Shown here: positions 21,686 through 52,120 of the stretch, piece by piece
Numbering within the stretch: position 1 is the first letter of the stretch
Layout: each line of letters starts with the position of its first letter
DNA from: Acidimicrobiales bacterium
GTDB lineage: Bacteria; Actinomycetota; Acidimicrobiia; Acidimicrobiales; SHLQ01
Length of the DNA stretch: 64,000 nucleotides
Direction of reading: 5' to 3'
NCBI GenBank assembly: GCA_965216815.1
Contig: OZ244202.1
Coordinates: 145,694-209,693, forward strand
Notes under the pieces: generated by a model
Told to the model about the DNA's origin: nothing
Database searches by the model: none
What the model saw: only the letters and a program-made list of their open reading frames with translations
Position numbers and translations under genes: made by a program

Positions 21686-21720
21686 GACAGGGGGTCTGTC
21701 CCCCTGTCCTACTCAACGGG
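21674..21720. terminator. Perfect 21-bp inverted repeat, probable bidirectional terminator
   Basis: CCCGTTGAGTAGGACAGGGGG-TCTGT-CCCCCTGTCCTACTCAACGGG between convergent genes. Confidence 0.75.
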
Positions 21721-22780
21721 GGTTGAGCTCGATCTCGGTGGCCTTGATCGATGTCCAGATCGGCGTGCCGGGCGCGAGATCGAGCGCCGCCGCAGCGGCC
21801 GGCGTGACGTCGACGCTGAGTGGGAGCGGCTGGTCGAGGGTCACCCGGGTGATGTCTCCCAGCGGCTCCAGCTCGGCAACCGCGCTTCGCCAGCTGTTGC
21901 GAGGGCTCCCGTGGGGTTGTTCGGCGTGGAGTGCGATCGCGTTGGGGTGAATCGTGATGAGCACCGAACCCTCGGTTCGGGTGTCGGCGCTGCGCAGCTC
22001 GATGCCGTGATCGTCGAGCTCCAGGCTGCCTCCGACGTTTCGACCCGACAGCAGGTTCAGACCGGCAAACGCGGCCACGTACGGGGTGGCCGGTCGGCGA
22101 CGGATGTCGTCACGAGTGCCGGTCTGGGTGATCGAGCCGCCTTCGATGATCAGAATCCGATCGGAGAGCAGGAATGCGTCTGCGGGCTCGTGCGTGATCA
22201 GCAGCCGTGGACCGTCGAAACCGTCGAGGTGGGCACGGAGCGCGGTTCGCAGCCGACCCTTCGTTTCGACATCGAGAGCGGCGAGCGGCTCGTCGAGCAA
22301 CAGCAGTGTCGGTTCGGCCGCAAGGGTGCGGGCGAGCGCAACACGCTGGGCTTGACCACCTGAGATCTCCGAGGGGCGGCTGTGCACGATGTCGTCGAGA
22401 TCGAACCGCTCGATCCAGATGCGCGCGCTCGCCCGGGCGTCGGCCCGGTTCGCTCCTGTGACCGAGGGTCCGAAGGCGACGTTGTCGAGTACATCGAGGT
22501 GCTCGAACAGCAGGTATCGCTGGAATACGACCCCGACGCCACGCTCCTCGGTCGGAACGAATAGGCCGGCCTCGGGGTCATCGAGAACTAGGCCGTTCAA
22601 CTCGATGCGACCACGATCGATCGCAGCGATGCCCGCAAGCGCGTCGACCACCGTCGACTTGCCCGCCCCGTTGGGACCGACCAGCGCTGCGGTCTCGCCC
22701 GGCTCGATCGACATCTCGACATCGAGCATGAAGTTCTCACTTCGGCGAACGACCAGGTTGCATTCGAGTCCGGTACTCAC
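21713..22780 (-). CDS. modC: Molybdate ABC transporter ATP-binding protein with TOBE domain
   Basis: GPNGAGKST, ISGGQAQR, GSPRN..IKATE TOBE; GTGA overlap with modB. Confidence 0.85.
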   Translation of the reverse strand: MSTGLECNLVVRRSENFMLDVEMSIEPGETAALVGPNGAGKSTVVDALAGIAAIDRGRIELNGLVLDDPEAGLFVPTEERGVGVVFQRYLLFEHLDVLDNVAFGPSVTGANRADARASARIWIERFDLDDIVHSRPSEISGGQAQRVALARTLAAEPTLLLLDEPLAALDVETKGRLRTALRAHLDGFDGPRLLITHEPADAFLLSDRILIIEGGSITQTGTRDDIRRRPATPYVAAFAGLNLLSGRNVGGSLELDDHGIELRSADTRTEGSVLITIHPNAIALHAEQPHGSPRNSWRSAVAELEPLGDITRVTLDQPLPLSVDVTPAAAAALDLAPGTPIWTSIKATEIELNPR

Positions 22781-23586
22781 GTCGCCGTCCACCATCGATC
22801 GCGAAAGATCGTCAGGACGACGAGCGACACAACGACGAGGACCAGGCTGATCGCAACCGCGGTGTCTCGATCGGAGTCGAGCGCGACGAACACCGCCAGC
22901 GGCAACGTCTGGGTGCGCCCCTGGAGGTTCCCGGCGAAGGTCACGGTAGCTCCGAACTCGCCGAGCGCTCGCGCCCACGCAAGCACGACCCCTGCCTGAA
23001 GCGCGGGGCCGATCATCGGTAGCGTCACGCGACGAAAGACCGTGAGCCTCGATGCCCCAAGGCTCGCTGCCGCGTGCTCATAGCGACGGTCGGCACCCGA
23101 CAGAGCGCCCTCGACCGTGATCACCAGGAACGGCATGGCGACGAACGTATTCGCCGCTATCACCCCCCAGAACGAGAATGGCAACAGAAAGCCGGTCGCC
23201 TCCTCGAGCGGCTCGCCGACCAGTCCCCGTCCACCGAACGCGAACAGCAGCGCCGCTCCCCCGACGACCGGTGGAAGCACCATCGGCAGCGTCACCATCG
23301 CGCGGACGAAACGCCGTCCGGGGAAATCGACCCGCGCGAGAATCCAAGCCAGCGGTACGCCCAACACCAGCGACAGGAAGGCCGACACCACCGAGGTCAC
23401 GACCGACAGCCAGAGCGCGTCGGTGACGACATCGGAGCCGATGAGATCGCCGAGGTCGCTCCACGGCGTGCGCGCGAGCAGGCCGATCAGGGGAAGGACG
23501 AACAGAGCTGCGCCCACCAAACCGAGGATGACGAGCGGCCAGGGTGGCCTCCGACCCACGATGCGACGCCGCGACCCGTCGGTCAC
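22777..23586 (-). CDS. modB: Molybdate ABC transporter permease
   Basis: LPMVLPPVVGG, WARALGEFGAT, TQTLPLA. Confidence 0.92.
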   Translation of the reverse strand: MTDGSRRRIVGRRPPWPLVILGLVGAALFVLPLIGLLARTPWSDLGDLIGSDVVTDALWLSVVTSVVSAFLSLVLGVPLAWILARVDFPGRRFVRAMVTLPMVLPPVVGGAALLFAFGGRGLVGEPLEEATGFLLPFSFWGVIAANTFVAMPFLVITVEGALSGADRRYEHAAASLGASRLTVFRRVTLPMIGPALQAGVVLAWARALGEFGATVTFAGNLQGRTQTLPLAVFVALDSDRDTAVAISLVLVVVSLVVLTIFRDRWWTAT

Positions 23587-24350
23587 GACGCACCGAAACC
23601 GTGCTCGACGAGGATCTCCCGACCTTGCGGCGACAAGACGAATTCGATGAACACGTCGGCCGCCGTCGGGTTCGGGGCCTCGACGAGAGCAGCGATCGGG
23701 TATTGCGCCGACGGGGCCTCGGCGATCGGTATTCCGTCGATGTCGGGGCTGGCCAGCACCTCGGTGGAATAGACGATCCCAGCGTCGAGCTCCTCAGCCG
23801 CGAGACGCGTTGCGAGCGCGCGGACACTCGATTCCTCGGTGTCGACCGAAGCCTCCACGCCCGCACGAGCGAGCGCGTCGCGTGCTAGATCGCCACACGG
23901 GACACCGACCGCGCAGAGGCCGACGAGAAGGTCGGCGCGGGCGAGGTCGGCGAGACCGCCGACCTCGCCCGGGTTTCCATCGGGCACGCCTATCACGACT
24001 CGGTTGGTGGCGAACACGACCGGATCGTCGACCACCGCTCCTTCGTCGACAAGCCGTGCCATGTTCGAGGCGTCGGCCGATGCGTACACATCGACCGGTG
24101 CTCCCTCGAGTACCTGCTCGCGCAACGACGAGCTCCCCGCAAAGTTCAGTTCGACCTCGACGTAGGCGTGCTCCGATTCAAAGGCATCGGCGATCTCACC
24201 GAATGCGTCGGTCAGTGAGGCTGCCGCCGACACGCGGACGGTCTCACCGTCACGGCCCCCGCACGCGCCGAGCGCGACCAGCCCAGCGACCAACAAGACC
24301 GATCCGCAAAGACGGTGTCGGACACCGACGGTGTCAGCACTGAGCACCAC
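23583..24350 (-). CDS. modA: Molybdate ABC transporter substrate-binding lipoprotein
   Basis: Lipobox LGAC, AAASLTDAF, FAGSSSL, VPCG, AGIVYSTE. Confidence 0.92.
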   Translation of the reverse strand: MVLSADTVGVRHRLCGSVLLVAGLVALGACGGRDGETVRVSAAASLTDAFGEIADAFESEHAYVEVELNFAGSSSLREQVLEGAPVDVYASADASNMARLVDEGAVVDDPVVFATNRVVIGVPDGNPGEVGGLADLARADLLVGLCAVGVPCGDLARDALARAGVEASVDTEESSVRALATRLAAEELDAGIVYSTEVLASPDIDGIPIAEAPSAQYPIAALVEAPNPTAADVFIEFVLSPQGREILVEHGFGAS

Positions 24351-24351
24351 T

Positions 24352-25422
24352 TCACACCGGCGTGTTCGCGGCGGAGTCGAACTCTCGCAGTCCGAGCTCG
24401 TCGACGAGGGGTGCGCTGATCTCCTTCGAGAACTCGTCGAGAGGCAGCCCGGTCCCGTCGGCGATCCGGTTCATGCGCTCGAAGTTGCCGATGACTCCAG
24501 CGACCTCGATCACGCCTCGATCACCGATCGCGTCACGCAATGCGTCACGCGCCCGATCGAGGTCGTCGAGCGCGACCATCGAGGCGTCGACGAAATCGAG
24601 AATCGCCCCACCGGCGGGCACGCCCGACTCGGCTTGGCGGTCGACGATGCTCCTCTCGTCGACGTCCTGCTCCTCCCGATCGCTGCTCGCACGGAGCAGC
24701 AGGGCGTGCGACGCCGTTCAATAGAAGCACTCGTTCAATGCCGACACCCGTGCAGCGATCAGCTCCATCTGCGACCGGCTGATCGCCCTGTCGCCGTTCT
24801 TGGTGACGTCCATGACGCCATCCGGGTCGAGGTACTGGACGGAGTTGAGGTCATCGGTCTCCCGGGTCGTCTGCGGCACGAGAGTGAGAGCGCGCAGCAC
24901 CCTGCCCTTCGGCGCGTGGTCCCCCGCTGCCGCAACAGGAACCCAAGCCCCGATGTCGTCGAGGTTGGCCGGGCGCTCGCCCGAAGGCTCACCGGGTCGC
25001 GGTTCAGGTAGAGCATCGACCGGCAGGCCGGCGGCGGTGTTGACCCGATCGATCGCGACGACACAGCAGACGATCCCGAGCAGCTCGACGTAATGGCCCT
25101 CGGTGAAGTCGGCGCCGAGAGTCGCTCTCAGCCACGACTCGGTGAGCCGACCTGGGTCGGTCGCGATGCGATGTACCGCATCGACGGCACCTTCGCTCAG
25201 CAGACCGTCGGCAACCGTCAGGTGGGCACCGCCGACCGCTGCGGGCGAGACCGCGTCCTTGCGAGCCGCGCACAGGTCGCATCGGCCGGCCGCACGGGTC
25301 TCGGCCGCGATCGCGACGCGCCCGGTGCCCGTCCACCACGTTCCGGGCCGGCCGAGCGCGACCCAGAATCGCGCATGCGCTGCGTCGAGCTCATCGCCGA
25401 GTGTGGTCGGTGCATCCGTCAT
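24352..25422 (-). CDS. AhpD/CMD-like alkylhydroperoxidase-related selenoprotein (in-frame UGA at 24718-24720; 356 aa, Sec235)
   Basis: ORFs 24718-25422 and 24352-24621 share a frame, separated only by TGA: ..RVSALNECFY-U-TASHALLLRAS..; SECIS-like hairpin follows. Confidence 0.8.
24682..24717 (-). promoter_or_regulatory. Candidate bacterial SECIS element
   Basis: 17 nt after the UGA: stem GCUGCUC / GAGCAGC with loop CGUGC (G at loop position 2, followed by U). Confidence 0.65.
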
Positions 25423-25426
25423 CGCA

Positions 25427-26188
25427 TCAGTAGATCACAGAGCTGACGGTGCTGAGGCCGATCGGGCCGTCGAGATCGTGCACTGCACAACTGGCGGCGG
25501 ACACTCCCGCAGCGTTGCGGTGGAAGATCGTCTCGAACCCGATCCAGTCGCTCACGGGTAGCCGGGCGAGGTTCAGCGTGATGTCGGCGTTGATGAAATC
25601 GAGCCCGCCGTCTCCCCAGTTGGCGACCGGGCTGGCGAGATCGGCGGCTGTCGCAACCCGCACGAACGGGGTGACCGTCTCACCGGCGAGGAGTTGTGCA
25701 TTGTCGCGGGTCCAGCCGCGGCTGCGGGCGCTCCCGAAAAAGCCTTCGGGCCCCTCGCGGAACTCCCACACGTCGTTGTCCTCCATGCCGTCGGGGACCA
25801 CGAGCGTTTCGGGATGTGGCAGATCCCATGGCTTGGTCGACCAGACCTCGCGCAATTGCCGGTCGTCTGTGCGGGCGATGAGCGCGCGGGCGCGGGCCAG
25901 CTCCCGCCCACCCGAGCCGAGCGACAGGTCGACCACACGCACACGGCCACCGTCGCGAATTCGCTCGGCGTCGACCGTGATCGGCGCCATCGGCGGAGAC
26001 CGAAACATGTCGATCGTCAGCCGAGCCGGTAGCCAACCGTCGTCGAGATGGCCCGCCTCGACCCCGCGTGCGGCGAGACCGGCGAGCAGCCGGCCGTGCA
26101 GCATGTCCTCGGACCATGGCGCATGCGCGTGAGACCTCGGTACCGCTGCCCCGTCTTCGAGGTCGAACCACGCGGAGGTCTCGGTCAC
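25427..26188 (-). CDS. Acyl-CoA thioesterase-like double hot-dog protein
   Basis: PWSEDMLHG, ADLASP, FINADITLNLARLP. Confidence 0.85.
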   Translation of the reverse strand: MTETSAWFDLEDGAAVPRSHAHAPWSEDMLHGRLLAGLAARGVEAGHLDDGWLPARLTIDMFRSPPMAPITVDAERIRDGGRVRVVDLSLGSGGRELARARALIARTDDRQLREVWSTKPWDLPHPETLVVPDGMEDNDVWEFREGPEGFFGSARSRGWTRDNAQLLAGETVTPFVRVATAADLASPVANWGDGGLDFINADITLNLARLPVSDWIGFETIFHRNAAGVSAASCAVHDLDGPIGLSTVSSVIY

Positions 26189-26215
26189 GTCGGGCGCCGA
26201 CTATACATACTCGAC

Positions 26216-27421
26216 ATGGCAGACGTCGACGACACGACCCTCGATCCCGCCGAAGCCGAGGCCTTTCGCGAAAAGGCCCGCTCCTTCCTAGAGACTCACT
26301 GCATCTCCAGCCCCACGTTCGAACAAAGCCAGGCCTACTTCAAGGCGCTGGCCGACGAGGGGCTCGGCGGGATCGTCTACCCCAAAGATTTCGGCGGAGC
26401 CGGGCTGACGAAGGACCACGACAAGATCTTCCGCGAGGTCGCAGCTGCCTTTCCGGCCATGAACTCGGACTTCATCATCAGCCACGGCATGTGCCTTCCG
26501 GTGCTAAACGACTTCGGGACCGAGGAACAGAAGCGGGCGTACATGCCCGACTGCATCGCCGGCCAGACGCTGTGGTGCCAGATGTTCTCCGAACCTGGAG
26601 CGGGGTCCGATGTCGCCAGCCTTCAGACCAAGGCCGAGCGCGACGGCGATGAGTGGATCATCAACGGGCAGAAGGTGTGGACCACGCTCGCACACAAGAG
26701 CGACTACGGCGTCATCATCGCCCGCACCGACCCCGACGTCGTGAAGCACGCGGGGATCTCGATGTTCATCCTGCCGATGGATGCGCCCGGAGTCGAGGTA
26801 CGCCCCATTCACCAGATCGACGGCGGGTCACATTTCAACGAGGTCTTCTTCACCGACGTTCGCATCCCGGTCGACAACCTTCTCGGCGAGCTGAACAACG
26901 GCTGGAACCAATCGACCGCGATGCTCATGTACGAGCGCGTCGCCATCGGGACCATCGGCGGCGGGTCGATCAAGCAACCGACGTTCGAAATGCTCAAGAA
27001 GGCCGCCGCAGCGGGAGACCGCCTCGACGATCCGACCGTCCGCCAGGACCTGATGCGCATCTACTCGATGGAAACGACCAAGTCCCTGGTGTCGCTGCGC
27101 ACTCGCGCCGAGATGCAGGCCGGTCGCGCACCTGGCCCCGGCGGCTCGATCGGAAAGCTCTTCGGCTCGGTCATCGCTTGGCGCACCCGCGAGCTCGCGG
27201 CGAACCTGCTCGGCCCTGGTTCGGTCGCGTGGGACACCGACGATGCGGGCGGAGACAAGTTGTCGAGCTACACGCTCAACTCGTTCCAGTCGTCGATCGC
27301 CGGCGGGACCGACGAGATCCAACGCAACATCATCGGCGACCGCGTGCTCGGACTGCCCCGCGACATCAGCGTCGACAAGGGCGTTCCGTTCCGGGAGCTG
27401 AAGGTCGGAACCCAGCAGTAG
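26216..27421 (+). CDS. Acyl-CoA dehydrogenase
   Basis: WCQMFSEPGAGSD, NGQKVWT, FNEVFF, IAGGTDEIQRNIIGDRVLGLP. Confidence 0.93.
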   Translation: MADVDDTTLDPAEAEAFREKARSFLETHCISSPTFEQSQAYFKALADEGLGGIVYPKDFGGAGLTKDHDKIFREVAAAFPAMNSDFIISHGMCLPVLNDFGTEEQKRAYMPDCIAGQTLWCQMFSEPGAGSDVASLQTKAERDGDEWIINGQKVWTTLAHKSDYGVIIARTDPDVVKHAGISMFILPMDAPGVEVRPIHQIDGGSHFNEVFFTDVRIPVDNLLGELNNGWNQSTAMLMYERVAIGTIGGGSIKQPTFEMLKKAAAAGDRLDDPTVRQDLMRIYSMETTKSLVSLRTRAEMQAGRAPGPGGSIGKLFGSVIAWRTRELAANLLGPGSVAWDTDDAGGDKLSSYTLNSFQSSIAGGTDEIQRNIIGDRVLGLPRDISVDKGVPFRELKVGTQQ

Positions 27422-27431
27422 GGCCCAGAGG

Positions 27432-28574
27432 ATGCGCCGCACGATCTTCGACGACGAGCACGATCTGTTCAGGGCGGCGGTTCGGGGTTTCATCGAGGCA
27501 GAGATCGTGCCGAACGCGAAGGCGTGGGCCGACGCCGGCATCGTCGATCGGGATCTCTTCTCGCAGGCCGGCGACGCAGGGCTGTTGGCCATGGCCGCGC
27601 CGGAGGAGCACGGTGGCGGCGGAGTCGACGACTTCCGATTCAACTTGGTCATAGCCGAGGAGATCCACTACGCGGGAATGGCCGCCGCCGGCCTGGGCTG
27701 GACCCTCCACAACGACATCTGCCTGCCGTATTTCCTCGATCTGTGCACGTCCGAGCAACAGGAGCGGTGGTTACCGGGCATCGTGAGCGGCGAACTGATC
27801 ACGGCGATCGCCATGACCGAGCCGGCGATCGGTTCCGACCTCGCATCGATGTCGACCACCGCGCTGCTCGACGGCGACCACTACATCGTCAACGGCTCGA
27901 AGACGTTCATAACCAACGGCATCAACGCAGATCTGGTGATCACCGCGGTGAAGACCGATCCGGGCGAGAAGCACAGCGGCATGTCGCTGCTGGTTCTCGA
28001 GCGCGGCATCGACGGCTTCGAACGAGGTCGCAACCTCGACAAGATCGGGTTGCACGCGCAGGACACGGCCGAACTGTTCTTCACCGATGTGCGAGTGCCA
28101 GCGGCGAACCGCCTCGGAGATGAAGGCAAGGGGTTCGCCTATCTCGTTCAGAACCTTCCCCAGGAGCGATTGTCACTCGCAATGAGCGCGGTTGCCGCGG
28201 CCCGCCAGGCACTGCGCTGGACCGTCGACTACGCGAAGGAACGCGAAGCGTTCGGGCAGCCTCTGATGGGGTTTCAGAACACGCGGTTCCTGCTCGCTGA
28301 GCTGGCAACCGAAGTCGAGATCGGCGAGGTGTTCATCGACCGTTGCGTCGAGGCCCGCCTGGCGGGCGAGCTCACCACCGAAGAGGCGTCGATGGCGAAA
28401 TGGTGGGGCACCGAGCTTCAGAACAAGGTGATCGATCGCGGGGTTCAGGTGCACGGCGGCTACGGCTACATGACCGAGTACCCGATCGCCCAGGCCTACG
28501 CCGACGCGCGGGTCACGACGATCTTCGGCGGAACCACCGAGATCATGAAAGAGATCATCGCCCGGTCGCTGTGA
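27432..28574 (+). CDS. Acyl-CoA dehydrogenase (long-chain type)
   Basis: AIAMTEP..GSDL, NGSKTFITNG, QVHGGYGYM, IFGGTTEIMKE. Confidence 0.93.
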   Translation: MRRTIFDDEHDLFRAAVRGFIEAEIVPNAKAWADAGIVDRDLFSQAGDAGLLAMAAPEEHGGGGVDDFRFNLVIAEEIHYAGMAAAGLGWTLHNDICLPYFLDLCTSEQQERWLPGIVSGELITAIAMTEPAIGSDLASMSTTALLDGDHYIVNGSKTFITNGINADLVITAVKTDPGEKHSGMSLLVLERGIDGFERGRNLDKIGLHAQDTAELFFTDVRVPAANRLGDEGKGFAYLVQNLPQERLSLAMSAVAAARQALRWTVDYAKEREAFGQPLMGFQNTRFLLAELATEVEIGEVFIDRCVEARLAGELTTEEASMAKWWGTELQNKVIDRGVQVHGGYGYMTEYPIAQAYADARVTTIFGGTTEIMKEIIARSL

Positions 28575-51544: not shown

Positions 51545-52120
51545 ATGCCAACGCCACGCATCTCGATGCTCAGCCCCGAGGACTCGGTCGCCGCGGCAGC
51601 CGAGGCAGGGATACCGGCCCAGTTCGGCGAGCTCAACATCTTCCGCACCTTGTTACGCCGGCCGGCGACCGCAAAGGCGGTGAGCGACCTGTTGTTGTCG
51701 ATGTTGGTCGGAGGTGCGCTCGACGATCGGCTCCGCGAGCTCGTCATCATGCGGCTCGGGTGGGCCACCGCCTGCGACTACGAGTGGACCCAGCACTGGT
51801 CCGTGGCCCAGGACTTCGGGTGCTCGCCCGACGACCTTCTGGCCGTGCGCGACTGGGAGAACGCGTCGTCACTCGGAGACGTCGAGCGCGCCGTCCTGGC
51901 CGCCACAGACGAGACACTCGCGACCGGAGCTGCGTCGCAGGCCACGATCGCCCGGTGCCGACAGCTATTCGAATCCGAAGAAGAGGTGGTCGAGCTTGTC
52001 ACCGCCATAGCGACGTGGCGAGCGGTATCCCAGATCGTCAGAAGCCTCGACATCCCGCTCGAGGACGGGGTCGAATCCTGGCCGCCGGACGGCATCGCCG
52101 GCTCGACCGGCGACCCATGA
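51545..52120 (+). CDS. CMD/AhpD-like protein
   Basis: LDDRLRELVIMR, CDYEWTQHW. Confidence 0.85.
   Translation: MPTPRISMLSPEDSVAAAAEAGIPAQFGELNIFRTLLRRPATAKAVSDLLLSMLVGGALDDRLRELVIMRLGWATACDYEWTQHWSVAQDFGCSPDDLLAVRDWENASSLGDVERAVLAATDETLATGAASQATIARCRQLFESEEEVVELVTAIATWRAVSQIVRSLDIPLEDGVESWPPDGIAGSTGDP

Follow-up and report, generated by a model that had tools for sequence, protein, structure and literature searches.

The active site of AhpD follows the pattern E-x11-C-x-x-C-x3-H; in the Mycobacterium tuberculosis enzyme, the second cysteine of the motif attacks as the nucleophile, and the first one resolves. Part of PMC8945050 describes how this enzyme relays electrons from the lipoamide system to AhpC, and adds that it may itself have peroxidase activity. 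The same part of that paper reports that loss of DR1765 makes Deinococcus radiodurans sensitive to H2O2 and that complementation needs the cysteines of the CxxC motif. Selenocysteine (Sec, U) forms of such proteins are also on record. A portion of the 2005 Sargasso Sea selenoproteome paper (PMC1088965) gives the first description of a "hypothetical protein 1", from four sequences, which a 2026 review (PMC13188914) equates with NF041238, an NCBIfam equivalog called AhpD_rel_CFYUT, 'alkylhydroperoxidase-related (seleno)protein', whose name contains the motif CFYUT. Portions of PMC1088965 and of the 2008 Global Ocean Sampling paper (PMC2398784) also report shorter "AhpD-like" and "CMD domain" CxxU selenoproteins. 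Twenty years after its discovery, the NF041238 family is still functionally blank. Here we analyze a predicted member of this family, encoded on the minus strand at positions 24352–25422 of a 64,000-nucleotide stretch of Acidimicrobiales DNA (assembly GCA_965216815.1, contig OZ244202.1, positions 145,694–209,693; hereafter the window).

The gene of the window compares with these systems as follows. It shares the CFYUT motif, a full-length match and the length (356 residues, against a 357-position model) with NF041238, and no defining difference separates it from that family; the window copy falls in a subtype with an extra N-terminal CxxC. The single-domain "AhpD-like" CxxU selenoproteins (COG2128/TIGR01926 type; described in portions of Zhang and Gladyshev 2005, 2008) likewise carry CxxU in a domain of the AhpD/CMD fold, and their function is likewise open. 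They are ∼180 residues long with one domain, whereas the window protein has an extra N-terminal lobe of ∼150 residues and scores below the TIGR01926 cut-off. DR1765 (PDB 6k40) is the best solved sequence relative: its ELxA...C-x-Y-C-x-x-S-H aligns with E220...C232-F-Y-U235...H239 of the window protein. Unlike the latter, DR1765 has cysteine instead of Sec, and its single domain of 197 residues covers the C-lobe only. M. tuberculosis AhpD (1gu9/1knc) has the same fold (Z 8.8 for the C-lobe, over model residues 172–327, and 6.6 for the N-lobe) and the same E-x11-CxxC-x3-H pattern, but it is very distant by sequence (E = 0.04; far below the TIGR00777 cut-off).

Results

An in-frame UGA lies within one gene

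A minus-strand open reading frame (ORF; 24718–25422) of 234 codons begins with the ATG at 25422. Its C-terminal end, ...ELIAARVSALNECFY (the tail also written ...QMELIAARVSALNECFY), runs into a TGA at 24720–24718. The frame beyond reads TASHALLLRASSDREEQDV... and stays open up to the next TGA at 24354–24352. Reading the first TGA as U yields a 356-residue product with U at position 235, and the surrounding NECFY-TGA-TASH is the C-F-Y-U-T motif. The initial annotation had described just such a 234-residue ORF, ending in TGA and followed by an open frame to 24352 that would bring the product to 356 residues; the sequence and its translation confirm this. The read-through protein matched NF041238 at 402.3 bits (cut-off 175; E = 2e-120), residues 10–349 aligning to model positions 3–356 of 357 (393.6 bits in the whole-genome scan).

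The earliest in-frame start codon past the UGA is a GTG at 24621, corresponding to residue 268. A separately started downstream gene would miss residues 236–267, including H239, L243 and S246, which are invariant in the family. With these invariant residues placed after the UGA but ahead of any possible restart codon, two separately initiated genes are excluded.

The comparisons set out below confirm, at the level of sequence, that the window gene is a genuine selenoprotein gene with a predicted Sec, belonging to an already catalogued family and not a new kind of protein. The suspicion that related (seleno)protein families might already be catalogued was thus right: the family has been in print since 2005 and is curated by NCBI under the exact motif noticed at first reading. 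The gene had also been called hidden and split by ordinary gene callers. Translation table 11 does give two ORFs, but the gene is hardly hidden, since curated annotation already has the family. The ORFs 24718–25422 and 24352–24621 should be merged into one selenoprotein coding sequence with a transl_except at 24718–24720, which current NCBI rules (NF041238) already permit. Nothing here would surprise a selenoprotein specialist. What the analysis adds is a comparative model of the selenocysteine insertion sequence (SECIS) with a Cys-form as negative control, a predicted two-lobe, Sestrin-like layout, and the CxxC subtype.

The UGA is conserved in one alignment column

We scanned 42 genomes of the window's taxonomic family, including the window's own, with NF041238. 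A match at E ≤0.001 was present in 36 of the 42 genomes, and 30 of the 42 had a match over the cut-off. These over-threshold matches comprised 44 rows, 42 of which contained an in-frame TGA (39 with one, 3 with two); the remaining two span only model positions 1–237 and 5–37, N-terminal to the Sec column. In 20 loci of the taxonomic family that were cut out (window included), the TGA always stood in the same column, within C-x-x-U-x-x-x-H. One of them (L043) has a second TGA at its C-terminal end, which is probably the stop.

A pattern search with one genome per species recovered four further loci, from Binatia, Spirochaetaceae, Hydrogenedentota and a deltaproteobacterial metagenome-assembled genome (MAG). 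The Sec column is TGA in all four of these loci from other phyla. Among 401 sampled genomes of the window's phylum, 4 had an NF041238 match, all inside the window's class. Another family of the same class contributed three loci: two have TGA, and the third (G058) has TGC, which makes CFYCTLGH a Cys-form. The total is 26 Sec-forms, window included, plus one Cys-form; 25 homologous Sec-form loci thus come from five phyla. In a 20-sequence protein alignment, E220, C232, U235, H239, L243 and S246 were among 20 invariant columns.

As judged from these alignments, conservation of the UGA in a single column is far beyond chance. A Sec/Cys pair is found at this position as well, through the TGC of G058 and the CxxC of the solved proteins 6k40, 3c1l and 2pfx. 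The expectation that homologs should carry UGA or Cys here, with both flanks conserved, is therefore borne out by UGA in 25 relatives and by Cys in one relative and in the solved AhpD CxxC motifs.

NF041238 has also expanded within the window's taxonomic family, where a single genome can have as many as 6 matches (multiple copies occur in G016, G017, G020, G023, G026, G036, G040 and others). Many of these copies are ∼196 residues long, have one TGA and align to the C-lobe only (model positions ∼144–339); they are single-domain AhpD-like selenoproteins.

A conserved SECIS-type hairpin follows the UGA

Bacterial SECIS rules (PMC13188914) call for a loop of 3–9 nt on a stem of 4–16 bp, a G at loop position 1 or 2, with G or U as the usual next base, a distance of 16–37 nt from the UGA to the loop, and a minimum free energy (MFE) of −7.5 kcal/mol or lower. 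The window has a candidate hairpin that satisfies all of them. Its onset lies 16 nt past the UGA, its loop starts after 24 nt, and its energy is −12.4 kcal/mol. All rules were passed by 21 of the 26 Sec-forms (evaluated on the 21-nt piece). The other five retain the loop G and a run of no fewer than 5 contiguous pairs; they fail on the energy threshold alone (−4.8 to −6.8 kcal/mol). The Cys-form G058, a control of a single sequence, has 0 contiguous pairs in the hairpin register.

We compared 24 sequences in an ungapped alignment from the UGA onwards, giving 192 pair cells. Standard pairs filled 92.2% of the cells, versus 25–55% when the 3′ partners were slid by 1–3 columns. Three of the eight pairs showed changes on both sides (7 cells), and the inner five pairs were kept in all 24 sequences. 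Neither the observed paired fraction nor the covariation score was reached by any of 500 column shuffles; since relatedness by itself can lift sequences above shuffles even where no structure exists, the slid controls make the better yardstick. The codons point in the same direction. Third codon positions at columns 24, 27 and 33 are invariant (24/24): the Leu codon is CTC and the Ser codon AGC or AGT in every sequence, and column 33 is always G though it closes Ala, Val, Leu or Gly codons. Column 29, the loop G, never varies, and T comes next in at least 90%. A SECIS-type hairpin, which the initial annotation had proposed to look for, is thus found 24 nt (to the loop) downstream of the UGA, conserved and with covariation.

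After the terminal UGA at 24354–24352, no structure rose above background (z −0.26). An Rfam scan of 24300–25500 at E up to 10 returned no SECIS family; its single row, mir-3960 (E = 0.94; 23.7 bits, threshold 73), is a chance match.

The genome encodes the selenocysteine machinery

The genome (4.50 Mb in 2 contigs, 97.2% complete) has a complete Sec system. A tRNA-Sec scored 68.4 bits (gathering score 47), and ARAGORN called the same tRNA-SeC with anticodon TCA (C1:972668–972759, minus strand). selA scored 375.7 bits against 267.9, and selB, which adjoins it, 266.1 against 242.25 (pair at G000:C1:950762–952985, minus strand). The tRNA gene lies ∼20 kb from selA/selB, and selD lies elsewhere (381.2 bits against 125; G000:C1:1660377–1661297, plus strand; locus L018:1501–2421). 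selD also codes for a selenoprotein, with an in-frame TGA in its active-site GAGUGCK. All four of selA, selB, selC and selD, whose presence the selenocysteine reading had called for, are thus encoded above curated cut-offs. Together with the UGA column and the SECIS-type hairpin, they support the early view of C-F-Y-U-T-A-S-H as a selenocysteine signature.

Other frames in the genome also contain an in-frame TGA. A molybdopterin oxidoreductase (PF00384, 230.5 bits; G000:C1:83733–85004, minus strand), ∼61 kb before the window, has one and is probably a Sec-containing enzyme of the formate-dehydrogenase type. A small CMD/AhpD-like frame with one in-frame TGA (G000:C1:1032672–1032995, minus strand; TIGR01926 29.1 bits, below cut-off) may be another AhpD-like selenoprotein. 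Within the window, a frame at 51614–52060 on the plus strand (G000:C1:197307–197753) gives a weak TIGR01926 match (29.6 bits, below cut-off) with no internal stops; it is a Cys-type relative.

The UGA aligns with the second cysteine of the AhpD-type active site

The family profile found solved AhpD-type proteins: 6k40 (E = 6e-13), 3c1l (4.9e-12) and 2pfx (6.6e-12). The alignments pair E220 with the conserved Glu and H239 with the His; C232 and U235 match the first and the second Cys of the CxxC, respectively. The AhpD active-site pattern is therefore present here with predicted Sec at the second Cys, and the proposal of an AhpD/CMD C-x-x-C-x-x-x-H motif with the UGA in that place holds. By contrast with the related NCBIfam models discussed below, which fall short of their cut-offs, the 51-residue core domain model TIGR00778 was narrowly above its cut-off (28.5 against 27.8 bits).

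An AlphaFold2 model built from a 20-sequence alignment was all-helical and confident (predicted local distance difference test (pLDDT) 91.4; predicted template modelling score (pTM) 0.92). Against the PDB, Foldseek matched AhpD-core and peroxidase-related proteins over about half of the chain (E ∼4e-3; TM score to target 0.55–0.72) and gave weak whole-chain matches to Sestrin2. In exhaustive structural alignment the top match was human Sestrin2 (5cuf_A; Z 16.5, root-mean-square deviation 3.7 Å over 240 residues, model 2–327 on chain 68–477). The debrominase Bmp8 came second (Z 12.1, 172 residues aligned, model 92–340); further matches to the C-terminal part were 2pfx (Z 11.3, model 156–338), Atu0492 (10.9) and SMU.961 (10.9).

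The N-terminal 150 residues folded confidently on their own (pLDDT 93.3). Searched alone against 48,161 chains, this lobe had AhpD/CMD proteins as its top 7 matches: 2pfx (Z 8.3), 2gmy (7.3), 3lvy (7.2), 1gu9 (6.6), 6ohi (6.6), 4g9q (5.6) and 2q0t (5.5). The Sestrin2 N-lobe followed this set (Z 4.8, chain 68–218). In our view the predicted model shows a fusion of two AhpD-like lobes, of which the C-lobe is active and the N-lobe diverged. This reading relies on the consistent list of N-lobe matches and not on any single score.

Human Sestrin2 is thus the best whole-chain structural match, and has two AhpD-like lobes in one chain, as predicted here. At the sequence level, no Sestrin family was found in Pfam at E up to 0.1, and no Sestrin chain appeared among PDB profile matches at E up to 10. 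The redox Cys of Sestrin2 is located in its N-lobe, whereas the window protein has its CxxU in the C-lobe. With Bmp8 (6ohi/6ohj) the CMD/AhpD fold is common, but the sequence match has E = 1, Bmp8 works by Cys-based chemistry on a halogenated pyrrole, and a pathway of that type does not surround the window's gene.

An N-terminal CxxC marks a subtype

The read-through protein also contains C48-D-L-C51. In the predicted model this CxxC lies at the start of helix 49–56, as the CxxU does for helix 233–249. Four of the 20 aligned members have it: the window sequence and the full-length sequences from Binatia, Spirochaetaceae and Hydrogenedentota. The four group together in a maximum-likelihood tree with moderate support (81/90), and the window protein is 42–45% identical to the CxxC sequences of other phyla versus 33–40% to the copies of its own taxonomic family. 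Horizontal transfer was considered in this connection; with the window grouping with the three other-phylum sequences at just 81/90, we claim no direction.

Because the CxxC is present in just 4 of the 20 members, its distribution marks it as a subtype feature on which the family's chemistry cannot depend. The CDLC pair had been put forward as a second redox center. The pair is there, but a family-wide center it is not.

Proposed mechanism and alternative explanations

Taken together, these results suggest that the locus is one gene for a 356-residue NF041238 selenoprotein, its UGA decoded as Sec, the product a predicted selenol/thiol oxidoreductase with a diverged AhpD-like N-lobe; we put the probability of this reading at roughly 0.87. 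In such a scheme, the hairpin at 24701–24681 would act as a bacterial SECIS and bring SelB with Sec-tRNA(Sec) to a ribosome paused at the UGA, while the final UGA, which has no such element, would terminate translation. The protein would then act through the E220-x11-C232-x-x-U235-x3-H239 of its C-lobe: U235 would attack an oxidized substrate (a peroxide, or a disulfide or sulfenate of a partner protein), C232 would resolve the intermediate to leave an internal Se-S bond, and a reductant would regenerate the active site. The two lobes of the chain would form a Sestrin2-like pseudo-dimer, in which the N-lobe CxxC of the window's subtype might be an additional redox center. One could go further and see the NF041238 proteins as bacterial, selenium-using counterparts of the Sestrin architecture, in which, for the window's subtype, CxxC and CxxU form an internal relay that recycles the Se-S bond without AhpC or lipoamide; we regard this extension as a long shot.

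Several observations weigh against the oxidoreductase reading or parts of it. For the fold, the Z-scores of the N-lobe (≤8.3) are within the range that common helical arrangements can give, and an hhalign comparison of the N-half with the C-half was weak (E = 0.0095, probability 4%). For the family assignment, the Pfam CMD match is marginal (PF02627, 25.2 bits against a gathering threshold of 23, residues 211–251), and the protein stays below the cut-offs of TIGR00777, AhpD proper (15.5 against 191.95 bits), of the peroxidase-related subfamily TIGR01926 (41.5 against 81.8) and, we add, of TIGR04030 (21.8 against 233.15). For the hairpin, its stability alone does not exceed that of shuffled G+C-rich sequence (z −0.71), the fold of 76 nt prefers a different structure (z −2.15), and part of the nucleotide conservation may just reflect an L-L-R/S-x-S peptide; as stability alone is not significant, we rely on the comparative evidence. 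For the chemistry, the roles given to U235 and C232 are borrowed by analogy from work on M. tuberculosis AhpD, and the literature holds no experiment showing selenium incorporation or activity for the NF041238 family. No gene for an AhpC-type partner, a lipoamide system or another reductant adjoins the selenoprotein gene (the genome was not searched for ahpC), and no family-wide neighbor emerged from 64 flanking ORFs at 17 loci.

Could the UGA simply terminate translation? The locus would then be a nonsense-split or decaying gene, producing only a fragment of 234 residues, perhaps joined by an 89-residue one with its own start. A plain gene caller under table 11 does list two ORFs, and there is no direct evidence of Sec insertion. 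Such decay is nevertheless very hard to reconcile with 25 homologs, drawn from five phyla, that share the TGA column and conserve both flanks, with the invariant H239, L243 and S246 ahead of the first restart at residue 268, and with a conserved SECIS-type hairpin in a genome with the full Sec machinery, and we consider it highly improbable. Termination and Sec insertion could also share the UGA, since the two compete generally in bacteria: under low selenium the gene would yield mainly a truncated N-lobe whose CxxC has a role of its own, and with selenium available the full protein. The N-lobe, confidently folded alone in the model and carrying CxxC in the window's subtype, is compatible with this dual output. 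However, 16 of the 20 family members are without the CxxC, so that a stand-alone function of the N-lobe is no family trait; we think a dual output quite unlikely.

The protein may instead be a genuine selenoprotein with another chemistry, such as a Bmp8-like reductive dehalogenase, a decarboxylase or another activity of the CMD family. Bmp8 was the second-best structural match, the NF041238 family has no established function, and two neighborhoods look suggestive: a tryptophan-halogenase-type flavoenzyme (PF04820, 107 bits) lies two genes upstream in the Binatia locus, and a paralog clade with the motif C-[HY]-F-U-L-F-A-H (L038, L040, L041, L042) lies by luciferase-like monooxygenase genes in 4 of 4 loci and NADPH-dependent FMN reductase genes in 3 of 4, which hints at small-molecule metabolism. 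Against this, AhpD-type CxxC proteins far outrank Bmp8 by sequence (6e-13 against 1), the full AhpD pattern E-x11-CxxU-x3-H is invariant, and the halogenase neighbor turns up at just one of the four loci in the window's subtype, not at the window locus. We therefore find a different chemistry unlikely, and retain the selenol/thiol oxidoreductase as the preferred reading.

Features of the locus and gene neighborhood

The features of the locus are collected in Table 1.

Table 1. Features of the selenoprotein locus, in window coordinates
Feature	Position	Strand	Basis
Complete selenoprotein gene, 356 aa; ATG 25422, Sec-UGA 24720–24718, terminal UGA 24354–24352	24352..25422	−	Sequence, translation, NF041238 match
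In-frame UGA, predicted selenocysteine codon (U235)	24718..24720	−	TGA column in 25 homologous loci, TGC in 1; aligns with second Cys of CxxC in solved AhpD-type proteins
Candidate bacterial SECIS hairpin; 8-bp stem 24694–24701 with 24681–24688, apical loop CGUGC 24689–24693	24681..24701	−	MFE fold, rules, covariation
Active-site motif E220-x11-C232-F-Y-U235-T-A-S-H239 (predicted)	24706..24765	−	E220, C232, U235, H239 invariant 20/20; aligns with E...CxxC...H of 6k40, 3c1l, 2pfx
C-terminal AhpD/CMD-fold lobe, ∼residues 148–344, carries CxxU	24391..24981	−	CMD 25.2 bits; PDB profile matches from E 6e-13; Z 8–12 over model 148–344
N-terminal lobe, ∼residues 1–135, no Pfam family, predicted diverged AhpD/CMD-like fold	25018..25422	−	Fold alone, structural matches
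Subtype-specific C48-D-L-C51, N-terminus of helix 49–56	25270..25281	−	4/20 aligned members; tree support 81/90
Terminal UGA read as stop; 1 nt ahead of modA GTG start	24352..24354	−	Homologs end at same place
Acyl-CoA-thioesterase-like gene; stop 4 nt before selenoprotein ATG	25427..26188	−	PF13622 33.9 bits
modA, modB and modC-like ATPase with TOBE domain, downstream	21713..24350	−	NCBIfam scores
modA; GTG start 1 nt past selenoprotein stop	23583..24350	−	TIGR01256 114 bits vs 62.5
modB	22777..23586	−	TIGR02141 217 vs 182.6
modC-like ATPase, longest ORF	21713..22978	−	modC model 192 vs 285, below cut-off

The selenoprotein gene stands in a string that runs from the thioesterase-like gene to modABC. 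The thioesterase-like gene is preceded by a promoter-like site (26229–26200, minus strand; a consensus match only), and consensus matching, the only method applied, found no terminator-like site between it and the selenoprotein/modABC string. Divergent from this string are two acyl-CoA dehydrogenase genes (26048–28574, plus strand). The closest model to the modC-like ATPase is that of the tungstate ATPase WtpC, whose cut-off it likewise does not reach. Its longest ORF overlaps modB by ∼200 nt and its ATP-binding cassette (ABC) domain extends from residue 86 on; the true start is probably further downstream. We considered the modABC linkage as a family trait and rejected it: it is not repeated at homolog loci, and NCBIfam does not class the ABC transporter at L022 as a molybdate system.

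The other neighborhoods are best taken as leads, not as evidence of function; this applies to the paralog clade, the Spirochaetaceae and the Binatia patterns alike. The CxxC subtype and the paralog clade with its luciferase-like monooxygenase and FMN reductase neighbors nonetheless offer concrete starting points for biochemistry. The paralog clade is also flanked by KDPG aldolase (3/4) and YjeF_N (3/4) genes, so that its surroundings look like a conserved gene cluster. In the Spirochaetaceae MAG (L021:1443–2694, plus strand), genes for a thioredoxin-domain protein and a DsbD-type transmembrane protein lie directly upstream of the CxxC-subtype selenoprotein gene, and are possible redox partners.

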